From sequence record OR544955: a stretch of 64,000 bases of DNA. One strand, 5' to 3'. Positions 5,302 through 54,187 of the stretch are shown here, piece after piece; position 1 is the stretch's first letter, and each line of letters begins with the position of its first letter. Made by a program: the position numbers and the translations under genes. This DNA comes from Escherichia phage vB_EcoP_EP32B. The notes under the pieces were generated by a model. That model worked only from the letters and a program-made list of their open reading frames with translations. It did not search any database and was not told the DNA's origin.

Positions 5302-5876
5302 TATGCAATCTCCATCTCACGAATCAAATCAGTAATAAACGAGTTTATATCTTCTTTTGCAACAATTTTTATTTTACGAAGTTTTTCATTATCTAATACT
5401 GCCGCTTCGTAAGTATCTACTGCAGCTAAAGGTCCTTTATATTGCGGATACTTACGAGCTTCATCACCTTTATCGTACCACACTAAAGGCTCGTCCGGAT
5501 ATGAAACTAAATTGTAAAATTTCTCACGATTTTCATTGATATGATAAAGAACTTGGTCTCCACCGGCATTAGCATATTTCTGAATAGAAGCTTGATACGC
5601 TGCTTCCTGAGATGTAATCCAACCATAATACGGGTCGTAGTTATCGTTACACATCAAAAGAACCCAGTATAATTGAGGGTTGCCATAAATTATGTTTGCT
5701 AGTTCTTCAGGACGCGGAGAGCCTTTAATATAATAAGAACGTAATCTATAATTGGCAGCAACACGCTTAAAGTACTCTTTATAGTTACGAAATATGTCTG
5801 TCATAGGAATAGTAGGTGCATTCTTATTAACTGTTTTAGCACTATATCCTATTGGGTCGAAGAATGTAAATAACAA
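5301..5876 (-). CDS. 53: baseplate wedge protein gp53
   Basis: 191 aa, [33 protein letters not shown], matches recalled T4 gp53; upstream of gene 5. Confidence 0.9.
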
Positions 5877-5903
5877 GATAGTCTCCTTCCAATATGAAAT
5901 TGG

Positions 5904-5911
5904 TATAAATA
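5904..5911 (+). promoter_or_regulatory. T4-type late promoter TATAAATA upstream of gene 4/2 ORF
   Basis: exact TATAAATA about 27 bp before ATG 5938, followed by AGGAGG. Confidence 0.5.
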
Positions 5912-5918
5912 ATAATAC

Positions 5919-5926
5919 TATTTATA
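5919..5926 (-). promoter_or_regulatory. T4-type late promoter TATAAATA (minus strand) upstream of gene 53
   Basis: plus-strand TATTTATA reads TATAAATA on minus strand, about 43 bp upstream of gp53 start; divergent arrangement with the gene 4 promoter. Confidence 0.45.
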
Positions 5927-5937
5927 AGGAGGACAAC

Positions 5938-7134
5938 ATGGCCTACTCTGGTAAATGGGTCCCAAAAAATTTAAAAAAATACCGTGGAGACCATACCAAA
6001 ATAACGTATCGTTCAAACTGGGAAAAATTCTTTTTCGAATGGTTAGATAAAAATCCAGAAATTATTGCATGGGGTAGTGAAACAGCAGTAATTCCATATT
6101 TTTGTAATGCTGAAGGTAAAAAACGTCGATACTATATGGACATATGGATGAAAGATGCATCAGGTCAAGAGTTCTTTGTAGAAATAAAACCAAAGAAAGA
6201 AACTCAACCACCTATTAAGCCTGCAAATCTTACTACCGCAGCAAAGAAACGTTATATGAATGAAATATATACCTGGTCTGTGAACTGTGACAAATGGAAA
6301 GCTGCCTCAGCTATGAGCATATTCCAAATTATATCTGAAGGCGTACAAGCCCCTAAGATTGCTCAGTCTATGAATGAAAGAAAATGGATTGAGATAGGAT
6401 TAGAATACAAGAAAGCTAAAGAGAAAGGAATCACTGCAAAAGCATTTGCAGAATCAAAAGGAATAAAATACTCGTCGTTTACATCTGCAATGTCTAGATA
6501 TGCATCATCTATTAAGACCGCACAGAAAATTGAAACGCTTGAATCTAAACCTAAAAATAAACTCAATAAGCAAGAACGTCAACTTCTGATGATAAACTCG
6601 TTTCGCAGTTCAATACGAGAAAAGATTAGAAATGAAGGCGCAGCAGTAAACAACAAATCATCTAAGTGGTTTGTTGAAACAATTAAGAAAAGTGTAAAAG
6701 GTCATAAAGTAGTCAAGCCTACGCCAGGCAAAATTTATACTTACGTGTATGATGCTAAACATAAAGATACTCTGCCGTATTGGGACAGATATCCTTTGAT
6801 TATTTATTTAGGATTAGGTAAACATAATTTGATGTATGGATTAAACTTGCACTATATCCCACCTAAAGCACGACAACAGTTTCTTGAAGAATTGCTGAAG
6901 CAATATGCTAGCACAACTACTATTACTAATAACACAAAGTTGAAGATAGACTGGAGCAAGGTGAAAGGATTTCAAGGTGCTGACAAAATGATTAAAGCAT
7001 ACCTGCCTGGCCACATTAGAGGAACAATAACAGAAATAGCTCCTAAAGACTGGGCTAACATAATCATGTTACCTACTCAGCAGTTTATGTCAAAAGGAAA
7101 ACGTTTCTCTGCGAATACTGTTTGGAAATCTTAA
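5938..7134 (+). CDS. single 398-codon ORF combining a head completion (gp4-like) N-terminal region and a DNA end protector (gp2-like) C-terminal region
   Basis: ATG 5938 preceded by AGGAGG; [19 protein letters not shown]...; no in-frame stop until 7134; total length close to T4 gp4 (150 aa) plus gp2 (274 aa); internal Met at codon 126 (MSIFQII) leaves 273 codons. Confidence 0.55.
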
Positions 7135-31127: not shown

Positions 31128-31601
31128 ATGTTATTATCAGGCGCAAAATATAAAGAAGAAAAACAAAAATTTTATGATGCACAGAATGGTAAGTGTCCTA
31201 TTTGCCACCGTGAATTAGACCCTGATGTTCAAGGTAACCATCTTGACCACGACCATGAATTAAACGGGCCAAAAGCCGGTAGAGTTCGTGGGTTACTATG
31301 TAACCTGTGCAATGCAGCAGAAGGTCAAATGAAGCATAAGTTCAACCGTTCTGGTCTTAAAGGTCAAAACGTTGACTACCTCGAATGGCTTGAAGCTCTT
31401 CTTGCTTATTTGAAACAAGATTATTCTGATAATAATATCCATCCTAATTTTGTTCCAGACAAAACTAAAGAGTTCTCAAGACTAGGTAAAGAGGAAATGA
31501 TGGCCGAGATGCTTCAAAGAGGATTTGAATATAATGAATCTGATACTAAAACACAATTAATAGCTTCATTCAAAAAGCAGCTTAGAAAGAGTTTAAAATG
31601 A
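31128..31601 (+). CDS. 49: endonuclease VII (Holliday junction resolvase) gp49
   Basis: MLLSGAKYKEEKQKFYDAQNGKCPICHRELDPDVQGNHLDHDHELNGP..., matches recalled T4 endo VII. Confidence 0.95.
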   Translation: MLLSGAKYKEEKQKFYDAQNGKCPICHRELDPDVQGNHLDHDHELNGPKAGRVRGLLCNLCNAAEGQMKHKFNRSGLKGQNVDYLEWLEALLAYLKQDYSDNNIHPNFVPDKTKEFSRLGKEEMMAEMLQRGFEYNESDTKTQLIASFKKQLRKSLK

Positions 31602-33415
31602 AAATTGAAAAAGAAATTGAAGGATTAATTCGTAAAACTAATAAAGATCTTTTAAACGAGAATGCTAATAAAGATTCTCGTGTTTTTCCAACTCAACGGG
31701 ACCTTATGGCTGGTATTGTGTCTAAGCACATTGCCAAAAATATGGTCCCGTCTTTTATTATGAAAGCGCATGAAAGTGGAATTATCCACATGCATGATAT
31801 TGATTATTCTCCTGCTCTTCCGTTTACTAATTGTTGTTTAGTCGATTTAAAGGGGATGCTTGAGAACGGATTTAAATTAGGCAATGCTCAAATTGAAACG
31901 CCTAAATCGATTGGTGTTGCTACTGCAATTATGGCACAAATTACTGCACAAGTTGCTTCACATCAGTATGGCGGAACTACATTTGCAAATGTCGATAAAG
32001 TTCTTTCTCCTTATGTTAAACGCACATACGCTAAACATGTTGAAGATGCGGAAAAATGGCAAATCGCTGATGCGTTGAATTATGCTCAATCCAAAACAGA
32101 AAAAGATGTCTATGACGCGTTCCAAGCTTATGAATATGAAGTAAATACTCTCTTTAGTTCAAATGGGCAAACGCCTTTTGTAACAATTACATTTGGTACG
32201 GGAACCGACTGGACTGAACGAATGATTCAGAAGGCAATTCTTAAAAACCGCATTAAAGGTCTTGGTCGTGATGGAATAACTCCTATTTTCCCTAAGCTTG
32301 TTATGTTTGTTGAAGAAGGTGTTAATCTTTATAAAGATGATCCGAACTATGATATTAAGCAGCTTGCTCTAGAGTGTGCAAGTAAAAGGATGTATCCTGA
32401 CATTATTTCGGTTAAGAATAATAAAGCTATTACCGGTTCTTCAATTCCAGTTTCTCCAATGGGTTGCCGTAGTTTCTTGGGCGTATGGAAAGATTCGACT
32501 GGTAATGAAATTCTTGATGGACGTAATAATCTCGGTGTTGTAACGCTGAATCTTCCTCGAATTGCGTTAGATTCTTATATTGGAACACAATTTAACGAAC
32601 AGAAATTTGTTGAATTATTCAATGAACGAATGGATTTGTGTTTTGAAGCATTGATGTGTAGAATTAGTTCCTTAAAAGGAGTTAAAGCGACTGTTGCTCC
32701 TATTCTTTACCAAGAAGGTGCATTCGGGGTTCGTCTTAAACCCGATGACGATATAATTGAGTTATTTAAAAACGGTAGAAGTTCAGTGTCCTTAGGATAC
32801 ATTGGTATTCACGAATTGAATATTCTTGTTGGTCGTGATATTGGACAAGAAATTTTAACTAAAATGAATGCTCTTCTTAAACAATGGACTGAAAGAACTG
32901 GGTTTGCTTTTAGCTTGTATTCTACACCTGCTGAAAACCTTTGTTATCGTTTCTGTAAACTAGACACAGAAAAATATGGAAGTGTAAAGGATGTTACTGA
33001 TAAAGGATGGTATACTAACAGTTTCCACGTTTCAGTAGAAGAAAATATTACTCCGTTTGAAAAGATTTCTCGTGAAGCACCATATCATTTCATTGCGACA
33101 GGTGGTCACATTTCTTATGTTGAACTTCCTGATATGAAAAACAACCTAAAAGGACTTGAGGCTGTATGGGATTATGCTGCACAGCATTTAGATTATTTTG
33201 GTGTTAATATGCCAGTAGATAAATGTTTTACATGTGGAAGTACCCATGAAATGACTCCGACTGAAAATGGATTTGTTTGTTCTATTTGTGGAGAAACTGA
33301 TCCTAAAAAGATGAACACAATAAGAAGAACATGCGGCTATTTGGGGAATCCGAACGAACGAGGATTTAATCTCGGCAAAAATAAAGAAATCATGCATAGG
33401 GTTAAACACCAATGA
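31598..33415 (+). CDS. nrdD: anaerobic ribonucleoside-triphosphate reductase NrdD
   Basis: 605 aa contiguous ORF; C-terminal Cys cluster CFTCGSTHE...CSICG and glycine-radical region. Confidence 0.95.
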   Translation: MKIEKEIEGLIRKTNKDLLNENANKDSRVFPTQRDLMAGIVSKHIAKNMVPSFIMKAHESGIIHMHDIDYSPALPFTNCCLVDLKGMLENGFKLGNAQIETPKSIGVATAIMAQITAQVASHQYGGTTFANVDKVLSPYVKRTYAKHVEDAEKWQIADALNYAQSKTEKDVYDAFQAYEYEVNTLFSSNGQTPFVTITFGTGTDWTERMIQKAILKNRIKGLGRDGITPIFPKLVMFVEEGVNLYKDDPNYDIKQLALECASKRMYPDIISVKNNKAITGSSIPVSPMGCRSFLGVWKDSTGNEILDGRNNLGVVTLNLPRIALDSYIGTQFNEQKFVELFNERMDLCFEALMCRISSLKGVKATVAPILYQEGAFGVRLKPDDDIIELFKNGRSSVSLGYIGIHELNILVGRDIGQEILTKMNALLKQWTERTGFAFSLYSTPAENLCYRFCKLDTEKYGSVKDVTDKGWYTNSFHVSVEENITPFEKISREAPYHFIATGGHISYVELPDMKNNLKGLEAVWDYAAQHLDYFGVNMPVDKCFTCGSTHEMTPTENGFVCSICGETDPKKMNTIRRTCGYLGNPNERGFNLGKNKEIMHRVKHQ

Positions 33416-33882
33416 ATTATGATAGATTTTATCCTTGCGATTTTGTGAATGGCCCTGGTTGCAGGGTCGTTCTTTTCGTTACGGGTTGTTTGCATAAATG
33501 CGAAGGGTGTTATAATAAATCAACATGGAATGCTAGAAATGGTACTCCATTCACTGGAGAGACACTAGAACAATTAATTGAATGTTTGAATAATGATTAT
33601 ATAGAAGGATTGACTATAACCGGAGGAGACCCTCTCTATCCTGATAACCGAGATGTTATTCATCGCATTGCTCAAACAGTAAAAAATCTTTATCCTAATA
33701 AAAGCATTTGGTTGTGGACAGGATACAAGTTTGAAGATATTAAACAACTAGAAATGCTTAAATATGTTGATGTTATTATTGATGGGAAGTATGAGAAAAA
33801 TCTTCCGACTAAAAAGCTGTGGCGAGGATCAGATAATCAGCGACTTTGGTCAAATACCGATGGGGTGTGGAAACATGATTAA
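33412..33882 (+). CDS. nrdG: anaerobic RNR activating enzyme NrdG (radical SAM)
   Basis: CLHKCEGCYN radical-SAM cysteine motif. Confidence 0.9.
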   Translation: MNYDRFYPCDFVNGPGCRVVLFVTGCLHKCEGCYNKSTWNARNGTPFTGETLEQLIECLNNDYIEGLTITGGDPLYPDNRDVIHRIAQTVKNLYPNKSIWLWTGYKFEDIKQLEMLKYVDVIIDGKYEKNLPTKKLWRGSDNQRLWSNTDGVWKHD

Positions 33883-45072: not shown

Positions 45073-47757
45073 ATGAAAGAATTTTACTTAACGGTTGAAC
45101 AGATTGGTGATTCAATTTTTGAACGTTACATCGATTCTAATGGCCGTGAACGTACTCGTGAAGTAGAATATAAACCATCACTGTTTGCTCATTGTCCAGA
45201 AAGTCAGGCTACGAAATATTTCGATATCTACGGTAAGCCGTGTACTCGTAAGTTGTTCGCTAATATGCGTGATGCCTCCCAATGGATTAAACGTATGGAA
45301 GATATCGGACTTGAAGCACTTGGCATGGACGATTTCAAATTGGCGTATTTGTCTGACACTTATAACTATGAAATCAAATACGACCATACAAAAATTCGTG
45401 TGGCTAACTTCGACATCGAAGTAACATCTCCGGACGGGTTCCCTGAGCCGTCACAAGCAAAACATCCGATTGATGCTATCACCCATTATGACTCAATTGA
45501 CGACAGGTTCTACGTATTTGATCTATTGAATTCTCCATATGGTAATGTAGAAGAATGGTCTATCGAAATTGCAGCTAAGCTTCAAGAACAAGGTGGTGAT
45601 GAAGTTCCATCCGAAATTATCGATAAAATCATTTATATGCCGTTCGATAACGAAAAAGAATTGTTGATGGAATATCTCAACTTCTGGCAACAGAAAACTC
45701 CTGTCATTTTGACTGGATGGAACGTTGAGTCATTTGATATTCCATATGTGTATAACCGAATCAAGAATATTTTTGGCGAATCTACTGCGAAACGTTTATC
45801 ACCACATCGTAAAACTCGTGTTAAAGTTATCGAAAACATGTATGGTTCTCGTGAAATCATTACATTGTTCGGTATCTCTGTTCTTGATTATATTGACCTT
45901 TACAAAAAATTCTCTTTTACCAATCAACCGTCGTATTCTCTGGATTACATTTCAGAATTTGAATTGAACGTTGGTAAACTGAAATACGACGGTCCTATTT
46001 CTAAACTTCGTTATAACATCATCGACGTATATCGTGTATTGCAAATTGATGCTAAACGCCAGTTCATTAACTTGAGTTTGGACATGGGTTATTATGCTAA
46101 GATACAGATTCAATCTGTGTTTAGCCCAATTAAAACATGGGATGCTATTATTTTTAATAGCCTTAAAGAACAAAACAAGGTGATTCCACAAGGTCGTTCG
46201 CATCCAGTTCAACCTTACCCGGGTGCTTTTGTTAAGGAACCTATTCCAAATCGATACAAATATGTAATGAGTTTCGACCTTACATCTCTGTATCCAAGTA
46301 TTATTCGCCAAGTGAATATTAGCCCGGAAACAATAGCAGGAACGTTTAAAGTAGCTCCACTGCATGATTATATTAACGCAATCGCTGAACGTCCTTCAGA
46401 TGTGTACAGTTGCTCTCCTAACGGCATGATGTATTATAAAGACCGTGACGGTGTTGTTCCAACTGAAATCACTAAGGTCTTTAATCAACGTAAAGAACAT
46501 AAAGGTTATATGCTTGCAGCTCAACGTAATGGTGAAATAATTAAAGAGGCATTGCATAATCCTAATCTTTCTGTTGACGAACCATTAGATGTTGATTATC
46601 GTTTCGACTTCAGCGATGAGATTAAAGAAAAGATTAAAAAGTTGTCTGCTAAATCTCTTAATGAAATGTTGTTTAGAGCTCAACGTACTGAAGTTGCAGG
46701 TATGACTGCACAGATTAACCGTAAATTGCTTATCAACTCACTTTATGGTGCACTTGGAAACGTTTGGTTCCGTTATTATGATTTGCGTAATGCTACTGCA
46801 ATCACAACATTCGGACAAATGGCTTTACAGTGGATTGAACGTAAAGTTAATGAATATCTGAATGAAGTTTGCGGTACAGAAGGTGAAGCTTTCGTTCTTT
46901 ATGGTGATACAGACTCTATTTACGTATCTGCTGATAAAATTATCGATAAGGTTGGTGAATCTAAATTCCGTGATACCAACCATTGGGTAGACTTCTTAGA
47001 TAAGTTCGCTCGTGAACGTATGGAACCTGCTATTGATAGAGGTTTCCGTGAAATGTGCGAATACATGAATAATAAGCAACATTTGATGTTCATGGACCGA
47101 GAAGCTATCGCTGGTCCTCCGCTCGGTTCTAAAGGTATTGGTGGATTTTGGACTGGTAAGAAACGTTATGCATTAAACGTGTGGGATATGGAAGGTACTC
47201 GTTACGCTGAGCCTAAACTCAAAATCATGGGTCTAGAGACTCAGAAATCTTCGACACCTAAAGCAGTACAGAAAGCTCTTAAAGAATGTATTCGTCGTAT
47301 GCTTCAAGAAGGTGAAGAATCATTACAAGAATATTTTAAAGAGTTTGAAAAAGAATTCCGTCAATTGAATTATATTAGCATCGCGTCGGTATCTTCTGCG
47401 AATAACATTGCTAAATATGATGTCGGTGGATTCCCTGGCCCCAAATGTCCGTTCCATATTCGTGGAATTCTGACATATAACCGAGCTATCAAAGGTAATA
47501 TCGATGCACCGCAAGTTGTAGAAGGTGAAAAAGTATATGTTCTGCCTTTACGTGAAGGAAACCCATTCGGTGATAAATGTATCGCATGGCCTTCTGGTAC
47601 GGAAATCACTGATTTAATCAAAGATGATGTACTTCATTGGATGGACTACACGGTTCTCCTTGAGAAGACATTTATTAAACCACTTGAAGGATTCACATCA
47701 GCAGCTAAACTCGATTACGAGAAGAAAGCATCTCTGTTCGATATGTTTGATTTTTGA
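45073..47757 (+). CDS. 43: DNA polymerase gp43 (family B)
   Basis: 894 aa; exonuclease motif FDIEV, polymerase motifs DxxSLYPS and YGDTDS. Confidence 0.95.
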   Translation: MKEFYLTVEQIGDSIFERYIDSNGRERTREVEYKPSLFAHCPESQATKYFDIYGKPCTRKLFANMRDASQWIKRMEDIGLEALGMDDFKLAYLSDTYNYEIKYDHTKIRVANFDIEVTSPDGFPEPSQAKHPIDAITHYDSIDDRFYVFDLLNSPYGNVEEWSIEIAAKLQEQGGDEVPSEIIDKIIYMPFDNEKELLMEYLNFWQQKTPVILTGWNVESFDIPYVYNRIKNIFGESTAKRLSPHRKTRVKVIENMYGSREIITLFGISVLDYIDLYKKFSFTNQPSYSLDYISEFELNVGKLKYDGPISKLRYNIIDVYRVLQIDAKRQFINLSLDMGYYAKIQIQSVFSPIKTWDAIIFNSLKEQNKVIPQGRSHPVQPYPGAFVKEPIPNRYKYVMSFDLTSLYPSIIRQVNISPETIAGTFKVAPLHDYINAIAERPSDVYSCSPNGMMYYKDRDGVVPTEITKVFNQRKEHKGYMLAAQRNGEIIKEALHNPNLSVDEPLDVDYRFDFSDEIKEKIKKLSAKSLNEMLFRAQRTEVAGMTAQINRKLLINSLYGALGNVWFRYYDLRNATAITTFGQMALQWIERKVNEYLNEVCGTEGEAFVLYGDTDSIYVSADKIIDKVGESKFRDTNHWVDFLDKFARERMEPAIDRGFREMCEYMNNKQHLMFMDREAIAGPPLGSKGIGGFWTGKKRYALNVWDMEGTRYAEPKLKIMGLETQKSSTPKAVQKALKECIRRMLQEGEESLQEYFKEFEKEFRQLNYISIASVSSANNIAKYDVGGFPGPKCPFHIRGILTYNRAIKGNIDAPQVVEGEKVYVLPLREGNPFGDKCIAWPSGTEITDLIKDDVLHWMDYTVLLEKTFIKPLEGFTSAAKLDYEKKASLFDMFDF

Positions 47758-47797: not shown

Positions 47798-48273
47798 ATG
47801 AAAACTACTCCTATTACTATCGCTATTGACGCAATCATAAAACAAGCTTCTTCTTTGGCCGCTATGGCCAAAGTAATTAGTCAAAACCCTGCTCGTTATA
47901 ATGCTATTCTAGAAACTCTTCGACGCCCTGGACTGAGTAATTATGAAAGTCGTGTAATTATTACAGGTGTTGGTAAGAACGCTAATATCGCAACTAAAGC
48001 TTCCGAGACATTTGCTTCACTCGGTATCCCGAGTATGTACTTGAACACTGGGCATTATTCTCACGGTGATGCAGGATTCATTGCGCCTAATGAGGCATCG
48101 CGGTAGAGGTTGATGAGAATTCTCTGGCTCCGACAATGTCTACTACATTGTTGTTAGCGCTTATCGATACGTTCGCTATCAACCTTTCGTCTGAACGTGG
48201 ATTTACCTCTAATGATTTCCTTAAGTTCCATCCAGGCGGTGCACTAGGTGCCATGTTACGAGGCGAACAATGA
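47798..48273 (+). pseudogene. SIS-domain sugar-phosphate isomerase (arabinose-5-phosphate isomerase KdsD/GutQ-like), disrupted
   Basis: N-terminal fragment RVIITGVGKNANIATKASETFASLGIPSMYLNTGHYSHGDAGFI stops at 48106; a different frame encodes the SIS C-terminus LAPTMSTTLLLALIDTFAINL...FHPGGALGAMLRG; central segment missing. Confidence 0.6.
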
Positions 48274-48454: not shown

Positions 48455-50140
48455 ATGAAAAAAGCTGTTATTCTTGGTGCTGGACTGGCAACTCGTTTGT
48501 ATCCAATAACGCATCATATTCCAAAAGTTCTTGTGAACTATAAACAAGACACTATTCTGAGCAATTTGTATACAATTTATTCTGACCTTGGCGCAGATGA
48601 AATTATTGTAGTAGTTCATTCAAAATTTGCTGAAACTGTTCGAGCTTATTGTGAGCAAGAAGGGTTCAATGTGACTATTCGTACAGTTGATGAAGCGTAT
48701 GGTTCTGCTTATGCTCTTGCTAAATTACACAAAGATTTAGATGGCCATAACGTAATTGTTAACTGGTGTGATATTATTCCTGATTTTGGTTCATGGTCTT
48801 GGAATGTTAATGCAATCTATGTTAAGGGTGACGAATGTCGATATAATTTTGACGGTGAAAATATCACTAACGTAGGTTCAACAGGTGGTAATGTTGTAGG
48901 AATTTATCAGTTCAAAGACTGGGAATTCTACATGGGTTCTACTGATGAGGAAATTCACGAATACTGCAAAGGTCGTGATTTCGTAGAATTCCTTTACGGC
49001 AGCGCATTCAATAAATCAGAGCTTATGAATCTAATTGATTTAGGTGATATGCCTAAACTTGAAAAAGCTCATGAAGTTCGTGAACTTAATCGTAGTTTTA
49101 ATGCAGTTGAAATTGGTGAAGAAACTGTAACTAAATTCGCATTAACCGAACAAGGTCGAGCTCTTCAAAAAGATGAGATTTCATGGTATTTGAAAGTGAA
49201 ATCAGATTCAGTTCCTCAGTTAGTTTCGGTAAATGAAAATAATTTTGAAATGGAACGCATTAAAGGTAAGCCGGCATTTGAATATATTAAATCCAAATCA
49301 AGTCTTGCTCGTCCACAAATTGTTGATGCAATTTTAGATGCACTGAAATTCAGCACAGACACTTATTTTGTAAGTCCTGAAACTGTTCGTCGTGATTTCA
49401 CTAAAGAATTCTATACGAAAGTTATTGATCGTTGTGAAAGCATTCAGCCATTGATTGATTCATTTGGTAAAATCACACACGTGAACTACACTAAGATTGG
49501 ACGTCTGAAGCCAATGCTGAAGCAAGCTTTAGAACATCTTATTCGTTATCATACCCGTTCTCAGGGACAGTACTCTGTTATTCATGGTGACCCGAACTTC
49601 AGTAATACTATGATTACTGATAATGGCGAAGTCAAGTTTATCGACCCTCGTGGATATTTTGGCGAAACCAAGATTTACGGGCCAAAATTGTACGATGAAG
49701 CTAAAGTGCTTTATGCTGTTTCAGGTTATGATGAATTCAACGCTAATCCGACCTGGGGACAGTTTACTATTGACGAAACAACTTGTAATGTGACTATTAA
49801 CATCAATCCATTAGTTTACAAATATGGAAAGATGAGTTCGTTTAACGAGTATCATCATTTGGCTGTAGCAATTATCTGGATTGCATTAGGTGGTTATTTC
49901 AAGAATAATCCACTTAAAGCGGTAGCCGCATATTATAAAGGTATGGAACTTCTGACTAAGCAATTACGTAACATGGGCCGTGTACTTCAAGACGGCTCTA
50001 TTAGTTATGACGTAGCAGAACCTGTAACGGCTACTCTGATTACAAAAAATCCTGGTAAATGGGTACTAACTGATAAAGAAACTGGTGTTTCTTATCGTCC
50101 AATCGGTGGCGATATCACTCATCAATGGGAACGAATCTAA
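48455..50140 (+). CDS. bifunctional sugar-phosphate nucleotidyltransferase / sugar kinase
   Basis: N-terminus VILGAGLATRLYP (NTP-transferase G-x-G-x-R signature); C-terminal kinase motifs HGDPNFSNTMI and FIDPRGYFG (aminoglycoside/choline kinase-like fold); 561 aa. Confidence 0.75.
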   Translation: MKKAVILGAGLATRLYPITHHIPKVLVNYKQDTILSNLYTIYSDLGADEIIVVVHSKFAETVRAYCEQEGFNVTIRTVDEAYGSAYALAKLHKDLDGHNVIVNWCDIIPDFGSWSWNVNAIYVKGDECRYNFDGENITNVGSTGGNVVGIYQFKDWEFYMGSTDEEIHEYCKGRDFVEFLYGSAFNKSELMNLIDLGDMPKLEKAHEVRELNRSFNAVEIGEETVTKFALTEQGRALQKDEISWYLKVKSDSVPQLVSVNENNFEMERIKGKPAFEYIKSKSSLARPQIVDAILDALKFSTDTYFVSPETVRRDFTKEFYTKVIDRCESIQPLIDSFGKITHVNYTKIGRLKPMLKQALEHLIRYHTRSQGQYSVIHGDPNFSNTMITDNGEVKFIDPRGYFGETKIYGPKLYDEAKVLYAVSGYDEFNANPTWGQFTIDETTCNVTININPLVYKYGKMSSFNEYHHLAVAIIWIALGGYFKNNPLKAVAAYYKGMELLTKQLRNMGRVLQDGSISYDVAEPVTATLITKNPGKWVLTDKETGVSYRPIGGDITHQWERI

Positions 50141-50526
50141 TGCACCGTGTAGAAAACATGCTTAATCTTTGTTTTGATGTCGATGATTGTATAACAGAGT
50201 GGAATAACAATCGTGATTACGTGAACTTCAAACCAGACGTCGAAATGGTGACTGCTATTAATGCCCTGTATGATGCAGGGCATACCATAACGCTTTACAC
50301 TGCTCGTGGTATGAAGTCAGTAGGTCCTGGTCGTATAGCAATTGACATTCTCCCAAGTCTGATTCAGAACTTGGAAAACATTGGTTTGAAGTACCATAAT
50401 TTGCTAACACATAAACCAGTATATGATTGGATTATCGACGACAAAGCTATGCGTCCCGACGAATTCAAAGCTCTTATGAATAAAGGCGAATTCGAAACAT
50501 TTAAATCATATAAACCGAATCTATAA
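50140..50526 (+). CDS. HAD-superfamily phosphatase
   Basis: motif I FDVDDCIT, later DWIIDDK; start MHRVEN overlapping upstream stop. Confidence 0.6.
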   Translation: MHRVENMLNLCFDVDDCITEWNNNRDYVNFKPDVEMVTAINALYDAGHTITLYTARGMKSVGPGRIAIDILPSLIQNLENIGLKYHNLLTHKPVYDWIIDDKAMRPDEFKALMNKGEFETFKSYKPNL

Positions 50527-50582
50527 TAATTTAAGTAAGACCTGCAAAAACCATCGCATAAATTAACGTGAGATGCAAAAAA

Positions 50583-51743
50583 ATGAATACTTTTAAAATT
50601 GGAACGAATTTTGATTTAGCTCTTCTTGATAAAATCGTAGAGCTCAATAAAACTTATCCTAATAGCTTGATAAACGAAGTATACGGCTCTACAAGAGAAA
50701 TGGCTTTTGTAGCAGCCAGACCTGATTTTAGGCTTCCTGACGTTGACAAAAAGATGTTAGAAGATTACGTTAAACGTTGTAACGAATTAGGTATTTGCTT
50801 TAACTATACACTCAACACGATAAATCCTGGTTCAAAAAGAGAACTAGTCGAGTGGAAGAAGAAAGCTATTCAGGATTATGTTCAGTATCTTTGGTCAATA
50901 GGCGTATGGCGTATTACTATCGCTAACCCTGTTGTTATGGAAATTGTTCGTGAAGTCAATAAAGACATTGAGATTGAAGTTTCAACAATTCTACATGTCG
51001 ATGCTGTAACTCAAATAAAATACTTGCATGACCAATATAATATCAAAAAGGTCTGCTGTGGAATTCATAAGAACCGTTCAGTTTCTTTCCTGAAGCGTGC
51101 AGCAGAGTTTTGCAATAAGAACAATATAATATTTGAAGTTCTTGTAAATGAGTTCTGTTCTAATGCTGGTAAAGGGTATACAACACATTGTAGCTATCGT
51201 GACTCTTGCTATATTTTCCATAGTACTGATGTTACAGCCGATGATGCTAAATCCTTAAACGGGTATCCTATGCAGCACTGTATTAAAGCTCGTGATACAG
51301 ACCCATTTAACTGGTTGAGAACTCGTTTTGTTCGTCCTCAAGATTTGAAACTTTATAATGATATTGGTATCACTCAATTCAAAGTTTCAGGACGTACAGG
51401 TAGCACAGACTACATTTTGAAAGTTCTTGAAGCATACGCTTCTGAAAAGTTTGAAGGTAATTTGTTAGAACTGTGGAAGCCTTTAGAGACTATTTTCACT
51501 CTTGAAAATGAAACTGAGTTTTCACATACAGTAAATATTGAAACCTCTTTGTTAGATGGCTTTTTAGAAAAAAGGTGGTTCAGACATCCAGATTTTGATT
51601 GTGCTAATGAAATCTGTGGATCAACGTGTACATATTGTGAAAGATATTATAAACGTCAATTATCTAAAAACGGGTTAGCAGAAAACTCTATATCTATTAT
51701 TGATATAACTAACTCTGATGACGCTTTGAGGTACCCGGAATGA
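50583..51743 (+). CDS. Cys-rich enzyme-like protein of unknown function (386 aa)
   Basis: large ORF inside the modification cluster; cysteine clusters CCGIHKN, EFCSNAGKGYTTHCSYRDSC and CANEICGSTCTYCE. Confidence 0.6.
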   Translation: MNTFKIGTNFDLALLDKIVELNKTYPNSLINEVYGSTREMAFVAARPDFRLPDVDKKMLEDYVKRCNELGICFNYTLNTINPGSKRELVEWKKKAIQDYVQYLWSIGVWRITIANPVVMEIVREVNKDIEIEVSTILHVDAVTQIKYLHDQYNIKKVCCGIHKNRSVSFLKRAAEFCNKNNIIFEVLVNEFCSNAGKGYTTHCSYRDSCYIFHSTDVTADDAKSLNGYPMQHCIKARDTDPFNWLRTRFVRPQDLKLYNDIGITQFKVSGRTGSTDYILKVLEAYASEKFEGNLLELWKPLETIFTLENETEFSHTVNIETSLLDGFLEKRWFRHPDFDCANEICGSTCTYCERYYKRQLSKNGLAENSISIIDITNSDDALRYPE

Positions 51744-51979
51744 TTTCTAGAAAAACTTTTAATCACCAACTTAATGAAGAGATTTTGACTATTAAAATTA
51801 ACACTAACGAACAAATTCTTAAAAAGGCCCTTATGGGCCTGTTTGAAACTAAAGCGGCTAAAGTGATTAAAGAACCTGTTCAATTGGAATACTACGCTGA
51901 TGCATTTCTTCATAGTGTTCTTGGAAGTATCGATGCTGAAGCTTTACGTTATATCAACATTGTCAAGAAATTCAAATAA
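51740..51979 (+). CDS. hypothetical protein (79 aa)
   Basis: ATGA overlap. Confidence 0.5.
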   Translation: MISRKTFNHQLNEEILTIKINTNEQILKKALMGLFETKAAKVIKEPVQLEYYADAFLHSVLGSIDAEALRYINIVKKFK

Positions 51980-52021: not shown

Positions 52022-52738
52022 ATGGGAAAACATAACACAATGAAATATATCAAAGCCGCAGATTTTCAAACCGCATTTAAAGCAGTCAATCGTGAAATTT
52101 TAGAAAACCCGGAATTCGTAACTGATTCTCGTATTGGACGTTGTAATGAAATTGGGTCTATGACAGTAGTTGTTGACACTCCATCATCATTCAAAATGAC
52201 CGACCCGCGTATTAACCGCATCTCTTATGAATATGCCGAAGACTTCTGGAAGTTTATGATTTCTGGTGGTACTGACGCAGAAGAAGCGTTTAAGGCATAT
52301 CCTAATGTCGCTAAATTTATTTCTAAACCAAAATCAGATGCTTTGCCTGCAAACTTCAACACTTTCTATGGTCCTCGCATTGCGGCCCAATTACCAGCTC
52401 TTCTAAAAGAACTTAAAGAGAAGCCTAACTCCAGAAGAGTTGTGTTCCAAATTCTAGAAAGTTCTGATCAGGCTTTGCTTGATTCGGACGAAACGCTTGA
52501 ATATCCATGTACTGACTCAGTGACTTATTATATTCGTGACGGTAAGCTTTATACCCACTGTCATATGCGTTCCCAGAACTGTGCTGTTGTTATGCAGTTG
52601 GATTTTTATCTCCAAGGAAAATTACTTCATTATATCGCTAACGAATGCGGTGTAGAAGTTGGTGATTATACTCATACCATGGTAAGTGCCCATGTGTTTG
52701 AACGTGATTTTGATTATGTTAAAGGATTCCTTGACTAA
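52022..52738 (+). CDS. thymidylate synthase-fold enzyme, divergent deoxypyrimidine nucleotide hydroxymethylase (gene 42 position)
   Basis: YPCTDSVTYYIRDGKLYTHCHMRSQNCAVVMQLDFYLQ aligns with the catalytic Cys and MRSxD region of TS / dCMP hydroxymethylase; rest of protein unlike T4 gp42 as recalled. Confidence 0.7.
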   Translation: MGKHNTMKYIKAADFQTAFKAVNREILENPEFVTDSRIGRCNEIGSMTVVVDTPSSFKMTDPRINRISYEYAEDFWKFMISGGTDAEEAFKAYPNVAKFISKPKSDALPANFNTFYGPRIAAQLPALLKELKEKPNSRRVVFQILESSDQALLDSDETLEYPCTDSVTYYIRDGKLYTHCHMRSQNCAVVMQLDFYLQGKLLHYIANECGVEVGDYTHTMVSAHVFERDFDYVKGFLD

Positions 52739-53638: not shown

Positions 53639-54187
53639 ATGGCTAAAATTATTTTAGTAGACGGGCCGGATAATGCTGGTAAAACAACTTTCATTAATGA
53701 CATAATGGAAATTAGTGAAAGATATGTAAAGATTGATTTCCCTAAACGAACAGTTGATGGGCGTTTCGATGTTAAGTCTCGAAATGAAGTCGGCTGTTTC
53801 GAAACGATGTTGAATTATTTGGACCCTACTAAGATTTATCTGTTAGACCGTGGATATATTAGTAACTGGGTTTATGGACGTATTCGACAAGATGTGGACT
53901 CGGTTCTTGACGTTTATGAACAGGATTATGTTCGTCTTTGCCAAAACCATGATGTGTTCACAATTATTTTAACACGTAACGAAATGACTGAAAGTTTTGA
54001 AGACGACCTTATTACTTTGTCTTCATTCGGTTTTAATACAGTCATTTCATATTTTGAAGAGTTTGCAATTCATAACAAAATCCAAACGTATCAATTACTT
54101 AATCATGATGGTGCTAATAAAGTTATAGGATTTAACGCAAGCGAACGTAATAATTTGATTACAGAAATCATCAAATGGGCTCGTTAA
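53639..54187 (+). CDS. P-loop nucleoside/nucleotide kinase-like protein
   Basis: Walker A GPDNAGKTT at N-terminus, LLDRGY region; 182 aa. Confidence 0.65.
   Translation: MAKIILVDGPDNAGKTTFINDIMEISERYVKIDFPKRTVDGRFDVKSRNEVGCFETMLNYLDPTKIYLLDRGYISNWVYGRIRQDVDSVLDVYEQDYVRLCQNHDVFTIILTRNEMTESFEDDLITLSSFGFNTVISYFEEFAIHNKIQTYQLLNHDGANKVIGFNASERNNLITEIIKWAR

Follow-up and report, generated by a model that had tools for sequence, protein, structure and literature searches.

A U32-family protein in the 5-hydroxycytosine cluster of Escherichia phage vB_EcoP_EP32B is a candidate oxygen-independent, prephenate-dependent hydroxylase

The U32 proteins that have been characterized take part in hydroxylation reactions that proceed without O2. 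RlhA is required for 5-hydroxycytidine (ho5C) at C2501 of 23S rRNA and depends on prephenate and Fe-S assembly; its residues E161, C169 and C176 are essential for ho5C and the C-terminal C580 and C611 are needed as well (PMC5727448). TrhP provides a prephenate-dependent, O2-independent route to 5-hydroxyuridine at position 34 of tRNA (ho5U34) beside the O2-dependent TrhO, and its E162, C170 and C177 are essential for ho5U formation (PMC6599085). UbiU and UbiV (UbiU/V) are [4Fe-4S] proteins that stand in for flavin monooxygenases under anoxia (PMC6747719), and prephenate was proved to be their oxygen donor by 18O labelling (PMC10990095). Among phages, the DNA modification of RB69 is arabinosylated 5-hydroxycytosine (5hoC), not hydroxymethylcytosine. 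It depends on gp48, a ThyA homolog that makes 5-hydroxy-dCMP, binds flavin mononucleotide (FMN) and takes its oxygen from O2, as found by 18O2 labelling (PMC13326640). The gp48 activity has also been reconstituted in vitro according to the citation of He et al. in PMC13326640. Here we describe gp50, a 386-amino acid (aa) protein encoded in the corresponding cluster of Escherichia phage vB_EcoP_EP32B (sequence record OR544955). The whole stretch of 64,000 nucleotides (nt) that was analyzed is called the window, and positions refer to it unless another locus is named. On balance we favor the reading that gp50 is an O2-independent, prephenate-dependent hydroxylase giving 5-hydroxy-dCMP for the 5hoC pathway, an anaerobic counterpart of gp48.

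The DNA of the window is ~98% identical to RB69-like Mosigvirus coliphages, and gp50 is the homolog of RB69p050. It belongs to PHROG 5757, and its homologs carry a precomputed PF01136 assignment. Pfam Peptidase_U32 (PF01136) matches gp50 residues 94-286 with 42.2 bits against a gathering cutoff (GA) of 22.4. An AlphaFold2 (AF2) model built from 35 sequences has a mean predicted local distance difference test (pLDDT) score of 91.5 and a predicted template modeling (pTM) score of 0.90. The top Foldseek match of this model in the PDB, and the only specific one, is the U32 protein Mk0906 (5d88; E=1.8e-7, template modeling (TM) score 0.70, target-normalized); the remaining PDB matches are generic TIM barrels with TM 0.25-0.47. 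By this model gp50 is predicted to adopt the U32 TIM-barrel fold. An earlier reading made from the sequence alone (the sequence-only reading) could not match the protein to any family, which the Pfam score above GA corrects, and its U32 resemblance, then called speculative, is borne out by the family and fold searches together. When the gp50 family profile was compared with the four Escherichia coli U32 paralogs, the best match was RlhA (E=2.3e-5; gp50 54-285 with RlhA 46-258), and hhalign placed gp50 E190, C203 and C209 on RlhA E161, C169 and C176. The conserved U32 Glu and two Cys (E162, C170 and C177 in TrhP) are thus present in gp50. The RlhA subfamily combines the U32 domain with DUF3656 and an RlhA C-terminal region in ~650 aa, and these marks are missing in the 386-aa protein: PF01136 is the sole domain detected and there is no NCBIfam RlhA match.

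Annotations of this gene say something else. It reads 'peptidase' in RB69, and in GenBank and PHROG it goes under 'peptidase' or 'collagenase-like protease', so that gp50 might be taken for a true U32 peptidase or collagenase. We find this scarcely credible: the label is inherited from the old name of the family, the characterized members studied by genetics act in hydroxylation, the gene context bears no relation to proteolysis, and the Cys/Glu set matches the hydroxylase triad.

gp50 contains 13 Cys (3.4%), at C66/C72; at C158, C159, C177, C192, C203, C209 and C233; and at C340-x4-C345-x3-C349-x2-C352. Conservation was followed in an alignment of gp50 with 121 full-length relatives of 24-47% identity (122 sequences). 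C203 and C233 are kept in 122/122 and C192 in 121/122; the C209 position is Cys in 74 and His in 47; E190 is kept in 89 of the 122 sequences. The four C-terminal Cys (C340, C345, C349 and C352) are each kept in 115-117. C66, C72, C159 and C177 show no conservation across the 121 divergent relatives, and C158 is conserved in part. Two conserved four-ligand Cys sets imply that the gp50 family has two four-ligand sites (Table 1). The core site is a predicted variant of the U32 Fe-S motif, and Fe-S binding is predicted for it. Its spacing (C192-x10-C203-x5-C209-x23-C233) is not the canonical CX6CX15CX3/4C of most subfamilies; variant Cys motifs are known for UbiU and UbiV (PMC6747719). Of the three Cys clusters from which the sequence-only reading suggested metal or Fe-S binding, two are conserved and the first, C66/C72, is not conserved across the 121 relatives. 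The suggestion of metal or Fe-S binding itself gains from eight near-invariant ligand positions (one of them Cys/His), two of which align with essential Cys of the RlhA Fe-S motif (PMC5727448, PMC6747719).

Compared with the characterized U32 proteins, gp50 comes closest to RlhA. The two share the U32 domain and the E/C/C triad, and the proposed outcome, a hydroxyl on cytosine C5, is the same. The requirement of RlhA for C-terminal Cys recalls the C-terminal Cys motif of gp50, by analogy and not by alignment. RlhA, however, is a 653-aa protein with a DUF3656 domain that acts on pre-50S rRNA, whereas gp50 is viral, lacks DUF3656 and lies in a DNA-base pathway; the gp50 Cys spacing (CX10CX5[C/H]X23C plus CX4CX3CX2C) is unlike that of RlhA, and identity is ~24% over 195 aligned columns. 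TrhP and TrhO show the logic that we propose for gp50 and gp48: an O2-independent U32 protein and an unrelated O2-dependent enzyme carry out the same pyrimidine C5 hydroxylation, an arrangement useful to facultative anaerobes (PMC6599085). They differ in acting on tRNA uridines, in an aerobic partner that belongs to the rhodanese family and is not a ThyA-fold flavoenzyme, and in having unclustered genes. UbiU/V are U32 proteins that replace the flavin monooxygenases UbiI/H/F without O2, but their substrate is a lipid aromatic ring and they form a heterodimer working with the accessory protein UbiT. Mk0906, the sole solved U32 structure, shares the TIM-barrel core; at 12% identity, it is a 247-aa protein of no assigned function, without the C-terminal Cys-rich region of gp50.

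Since both characterized nucleic-acid U32 enzymes modify RNA and RlhA is the best paralog match, gp50 might be thought to hydroxylate host or phage RNA (tRNA U34 or rRNA C2501) and so to tune translation during infection. This is most improbable in our view. In close and distant phages alike the gene lies within modules for DNA modification, among kinase, DNA glycosyltransferase and NDP-sugar genes, the accessory domains of RlhA and TrhP are absent from gp50, and E. coli already has both enzymes.

The gene lies inside the modification cluster, after the sugar-activation genes and before the ThyA-like gene (Table 1), as the sequence-only reading had placed it; the neighbor taken there for a hydroxymethylase is a 5-hydroxy-dCMP synthase (PMC13326640). 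Because the product of the pathway is 5hoC and not hydroxymethylcytosine, the idea of a hydroxylase for gp50 becomes more pertinent. gp48, like DLP3 gp80 and the HY126 homolog, would share with gp50 the product and the pathway, and its gene is found ~280 bp downstream of gp50. It differs from gp50 in its unrelated fold and cofactor and in drawing oxygen from O2, and its function is experimentally established, whereas that of gp50 is proposed here from the evidence below and above. Earlier papers assign gp50 no function; the Thanatos paper modeled TH1_065, its function not reported.

A key clue to an oxygen donor comes from neighboring genes in related phages. The stop codons of the gp50 homologs in Serratia phage LC53 and Enterobacter phage Entb_45 are each overlapped by a gene for an AroQ chorismate mutase (CM; Pfam CM_2 44.6 and 40.9 bits, GA 27). 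A CM gene is found between or beside the U32 and ThyA-like genes in 16 of 19 Straboviridae loci, the others being two Mosigvirus loci and one Klebsiella phage locus (L009). Most of these CM genes are directly downstream of U32 with overlapping stop and start codons, and all those scanned scored above GA for CM_2. Shewanella phage Thanatos-2 has a rearranged gene order in which the U32-CM pair is kept, again with overlapping stop and start codons. All 51 records of this CM clade in the phage database (51/51) fall in a modification cluster, beside a ThyA-like and/or U32 gene. The phage CMs retain the equivalents of E. coli PheA R11, R28, K39, S84 and Q88, which we take to be the active-site residues of the E. 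coli CM domain (EcCM).

The same linkage is found farther away. We collected 39 distant loci (±6 kb around U32) from uncultivated viral contigs and genome bins, with U32 relatives of 45-58% identity. In 17 of the 39, a gene for CM, 3-deoxy-D-arabino-heptulosonate 7-phosphate (DAHP) synthase (DAHPS) or a DAHPS::CM fusion occurs near U32, mostly at most one gene away and otherwise within ~2 kb. U32 is followed, for example, by CM in L037, L039-41, L044-45 and L057-58, by a DAHPS::CM fusion in L043 and by DAHP synthase alone in L005 and L022; in L032-34 and L056 the fusion is just upstream of U32. Several distinct arrangements and fusions place shikimate/prephenate enzymes beside this U32 subfamily. 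The DAHP_synth_1 neighbors were also considered as 3-deoxy-D-manno-octulosonate 8-phosphate synthases (KDO8PS) of the Kdo sugar pathway, fed by arabinose 5-phosphate (A5P) isomerase; this was rejected on NCBIfam scores of 131-237 bits for DAHPS vs 47-67 for KDO8PS, and several of the genes are fused to CM_2. With the conserved synteny with the 5hoC pathway and the recurrent CM/DAHPS linkage, the suggestion of the sequence-only reading that gp50 is a candidate new modification enzyme has grown stronger. Jumbo-phage contigs with the U32-CM pair (L039, 1867-4678, minus strand) also encode two RimK-like ATP-grasp proteins, one of them NlpC/P60-fused.

The distant loci differ from the RB69-like cluster in the ThyA-like partner. 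A phmmer search found a gp48-like gene in 0 of the 39 loci, and a Pfam scan of 100 unclassified open reading frames (ORFs) of suitable size from 31 distant loci gave no Thymidylat_synt match beyond the positive control. What accompanies U32 there is a thymidylate-kinase-like gene and a glycosyltransferase (GT) homologous to RB69 gp46/47, and often arabinose-activation homologs too; in five loci an overlapping kinase-GT-U32 trio stands alone, with no arabinose genes. This trio mirrors the ThyA-GT-kinase trio of Straboviridae, a parallel that speaks for U32 as the source of the acceptor hydroxyl of the base and against action on the sugar. Further neighbors of U32 in distant loci are dCMP deaminase, uracil-DNA glycosylase (UDG), deoxynucleoside kinase (dNK), 5'-nucleotidase (NT5C) and replication genes.

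These loci bear on two other explanations. gp50 could belong to the sugar branch as a 'sugar or heterocycle reductase', modifying for example arabinose or its nucleotide sugar. This is the assignment in Table 1 of PMC13326640, and the gene comes directly after the sugar-activation genes; the TIM barrel also weakly resembles sugar isomerases, aldolases and glycosidases in Foldseek, although these matches reach only the TM range given above for generic barrels. We consider a sugar-branch role quite unlikely, because the published pathway from ribulose 5-phosphate (Ru5P) to UDP-arabinofuranose (UDP-Araf) is complete without gp50 (PMC13326640), DLP3 makes tri-arabosyl-5hoC without a gp50 homolog, the minimal kinase-GT-U32 modules lack arabinose genes, and the CM/DAHPS linkage would be left unexplained. 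The second explanation makes gp50 an Fe-S redox helper of gp48, for example a supplier of reduced flavin, and not a hydroxylase. gp48 binds FMN loosely and needs reducing equivalents (PMC13326640), and the two genes are near neighbors in Straboviridae. A helper role is very improbable, however, when U32 occurs without a gp48-like gene in 39/39 distant loci, when gp48 works in E. coli without gp50 (PMC13326640), and when a flavin reductase has no use for a prephenate supply.

Two observations on individual distant loci are added here. On a 466-kb phage-like contig (L002, 7447-8004) the dCMP deaminase gene overlaps the U32 start, a hint that the nucleotide hydroxylated in some phages may be, or turn into, a uracil derivative. 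In L003 (13227-14360) and L054 (11227-12360) a second, much more divergent U32 paralog (E ~1e-16 to gp50) is located ~4 kb downstream. Its neighbors are dNK, NT5C, a radical-SAM/SPASM gene and a gene like those for nucleoside deoxyribosyltransferases, and this locus may be another module for nucleoside modification.

Genes for NrdD, an anaerobic class III ribonucleotide reductase, and for its activase NrdG are found in the window (Table 1), and the phage is therefore built to replicate without O2. A second hydroxylase would be needed because gp48 uses O2 yet the phage carries NrdD/NrdG. The pair of NrdAB (aerobic) and NrdDG (anaerobic) in T4-like phages is a precedent for an O2-independent enzyme of nucleotide metabolism; the comparison is conceptual only, the proteins and the reaction being unrelated to gp50. 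Genome bins with members of the gp50 family come mostly from obligate anaerobes (Erysipelotrichales, Romboutsia, Clostridium, Gastranaerophilaceae and a Phocaeicola faecalis isolate). Among sequenced phages, a gp48-like gene is present in 345 records and the U32 gene in 221. Acinetobacter phages account for 57 of those with gp48-like genes and for none of the U32 matches; in the cluster of Acinetobacter phage DLP3 the HAD gene is followed directly by the ThyA-like gene, without U32 and without CM. This correlation with host lifestyle gives weak support to an anaerobic role.

We propose the following route. gp50 would install the C5 hydroxyl of 5-hydroxycytosine without O2 and take the oxygen from prephenate, the donor put forward for RlhA, TrhP and UbiU/V. 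Its substrate would most likely be a deoxycytidine nucleotide, dCMP. After phosphorylation of the resulting 5-hydroxy-dCMP, the phage polymerase would build it into DNA, where arabinosylation would follow, so that with gp50 the phage might keep full cytosine substitution in an anoxic gut host. In Mosigvirus prephenate would come from host PheA/TyrA, because there is no phage CM there. The basis of this proposal is the family, the fold, the conserved residues, the 5hoC synteny and the linkage to prephenate genes; from these we infer the reaction, the oxygen donor, the substrate level (dCMP vs DNA) and the aerobic/anaerobic division of labor. The substrate level is where a related explanation enters, in which the U32 hydroxylase acts post-replication on DNA cytosine (or on dCTP or dUMP) and not on dCMP. 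RlhA and TrhP do act on polynucleotides, and the overlap of the dCMP deaminase gene with the U32 start in one distant locus would fit another substrate. We judge this unlikely: the link of U32 to thymidylate-kinase-like genes in distant modules fits a monophosphate product, phage pyrimidine hypermodification generally begins at the mononucleotide (PMC13326640), and gp50 has no recognizable nucleic-acid-binding extension such as the DUF3656 of RlhA. All five alternatives (peptidase, RNA, sugar branch, redox helper and other substrate) are less consistent with the substitution pattern and the CM/DAHPS linkage than the dCMP hydroxylase that we favor.

A number of points weigh against an anaerobic dCMP hydroxylase. 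In vitro hydroxylation is yet to be shown for any U32 protein, and such assays of direct activity were still awaited according to a 2024 PNAS paper (PMC10990095). By its sequence gp50 is a U32 superfamily member outside every characterized subfamily: a PDB sequence search with gp50 gave no match, and NCBIfam UbiU (NF047963) scored 18.5 bits against an equivalog cutoff of 440. Only canonical Cys 1 and 2 align with RlhA (at x5 spacing), the positions of canonical Cys 3 and 4 holding other residues and the other ligands being displaced. No chorismate mutase was found in the window, as in the Mosigvirus loci. A ThyA-like gene could lie elsewhere in the genomes of the distant loci, beyond the ±6 kb covered. 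gp48 alone suffices for 5-hydroxydeoxycytidine (5hodC) formation in E. coli (PMC13326640). The Nucleic Acids Research (NAR) 2026 table enters RB69p050 as 'Sugar or heterocycle reductase' with 5d88 fold matches, and the protein is absent from the discussion (PMC13326640). Enteric 5hoC-type phages are partly without U32 (e.g., Dhakavirus VR5), and the U32 gene is accessory for that reason. The correlation with host lifestyle is confounded by phylogeny because the Acinetobacter phages form one clade.

Beyond this phage, we tentatively put forward, with rather less confidence, that the gp50-type U32 proteins may be O2-independent C5-hydroxylases of deoxypyrimidine nucleotides and make up a distinct subfamily, viral for the most part. 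In many uncultivated phages of anaerobes they might be the sole route to a glycosylatable 5-hydroxypyrimidine, the donor being boosted by phage CM and DAHP synthase. With the gp50 family profile, at least 459 clusters at 50% identity were found at E≤1e-30 and 1,658 clusters at E≤1e-3. No paper was found linking U32, chorismate mutase, phage and hydroxycytosine; He et al. 2026 and Mahler et al. 2025 were outside the reach of that search, but both are cited in the later NAR 2026 paper, which assigns gp50 no hydroxylase role. If the proposal for gp50 is true, it would fill a gap in the 5hoC pathway, whose only known synthase needs O2, in phages of gut bacteria, and would extend U32/prephenate hydroxylation from RNA and quinones to DNA precursors and viruses. 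On the broader subfamily reading, a small soluble substrate would be known for a U32 hydroxylase for the first time, prephenate would be the first organic oxygen donor in DNA-base biosynthesis, and a set of phage auxiliary metabolic genes would be directed at the shikimate pathway. Reconstitution of a U32 enzyme could become feasible with dCMP, a cheap soluble compound, as candidate substrate and with a small enzyme of monomer size. The proposal predicts glycosylation of 5-hydroxypyrimidines in phages of strict anaerobes and a cofactor-supply function for phage CM and DAHP synthase. It would also have practical consequences for phage therapy and for the evasion of restriction or CRISPR under anoxia.

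Table 1. Features of the 5hoC cluster, gp50 motifs and anaerobic nucleotide-reduction genes in the window
Feature	Position	Strand	Basis or remark
NrdD, anaerobic class III ribonucleotide reductase (NRDD 569 bits + glycyl-radical domain)	31598-33415		stop overlaps NrdG start
NrdG, radical-SAM activase of NrdD	33412-33882		
gp55 homolog, arabinose-5-phosphate isomerase, 102 aa, truncated	47798..48106	+	DNA alignment vs RB69
gp52:53 homolog, bifunctional nucleotidyltransferase/kinase (UDP-arabinose synthesis), intact 561 aa	48455..50140	+	Pfam NTP_transferase and kinase-like matches
gp51 homolog, HAD-type phosphatase (Araf1,5P2 -> Araf1P, by analogy with AfhF)	50125..50526	+	homology
gp50 homolog, 386-aa U32-family protein	50583..51743	+	ORF, PF01136, PHROG 5757, AF2/Foldseek, RlhA profile match
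gp50 core U32 motif region E190-C233 (N189-E190-F-C192 ... C203-x5-C209-Y ... P229-x3-C233); proposed [4Fe-4S] ligands and catalytic Glu	51150..51281	+	RlhA alignment, conservation
gp50 C-terminal C340-x4-C345-x3-C349-x2-C352; proposed second metal or Fe-S site	51600..51638	+	conservation
gp49 homolog, 79-aa conserved small helical protein	51740..51979	+	ATG overlaps gp50 stop (ATGA)
gp48 homolog, ThyA-like flavin/O2-dependent 5-hydroxy-dCMP synthase	52022..52738	+	Pfam Thymidylat_synt; 100% identical to RB69 gp48
gp46:47 homolog, DNA arabinosyltransferase 1, intact 299 aa	52738..53637	+	assignment from PMC13326640 Table 1
gp45 homolog, thymidylate-kinase-like nucleotide kinase	53639..54187	+	homology

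The gp50 ORF on the + strand starts with ATG at 50583 and ends with TGA at 51743. An alternative in-frame GTG at 50568 would make the protein longer by 5 aa; 50583 is the best start because homologs begin MNTFK. The poly-A run before gp50 (50568-50585) appears one A longer than the RB69 frame implies. The upstream ATG annotated in RB69 (MQKMNTF...) is thereby out of frame here, and the GTG at 50568 is in frame. The protein is identical (100%) to those of several sequenced Mosigvirus phages, and homologs of at least 80% identity are found in 221 phage records, so the gene picked out by the sequence-only reading is real and conserved.

The small gene that overlaps the gp50 stop codon, gp49, occupies the slot held by chorismate mutase in related phages. 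It was considered as a diverged CM, since it equals the Entb_45 CM in position and length, and rejected: there was no Pfam match, CM_2 included, at E≤10 and BLASTP against the Entb_45 CM gave E=7.1. Separate CM genes coexist with gp49-like genes in L010, L016, L019 and L023, a further reason for the rejection. Window-level homologs of gp49 occur solely in RB69-like phages, several of them truncated, and the AF2 model is poor (pLDDT 62). Many database copies (P0142-P0152) are 47-58 aa long and span 59-70% of the 79-aa form, which suggests frequent truncation or alternative starts.

The single intact ORFs of gp52:53 and gp46:47 agree with PMC13326640, in which the split ORFs 52/53 and 46/47 of the RB69 reference are attributed to sequencing errors. 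In the gp55 homolog a deletion of 160 bp compared with RB69 (junction ~48093) shifts the reading frame. All top database phages are without this deletion, their matches being split into two aligned pieces. Host KdsD/GutQ may be relied on instead, or the deletion may be an assembly defect or mark a defective genome. At the 3' end of the cluster uvsX comes after the thymidylate-kinase-like gene. The gp43 DNA polymerase ORF (45073-47757) encodes 894 aa vs 903 aa (2712 nt) in RB69 and looks like the result of a 9-aa in-frame deletion. At 5794-7134 in the window, a 446-aa ORF with a TnsA-like endonuclease N-terminal domain adjoins baseplate gp5/gp6 and is possibly an insertion of the mobile or homing-endonuclease type.

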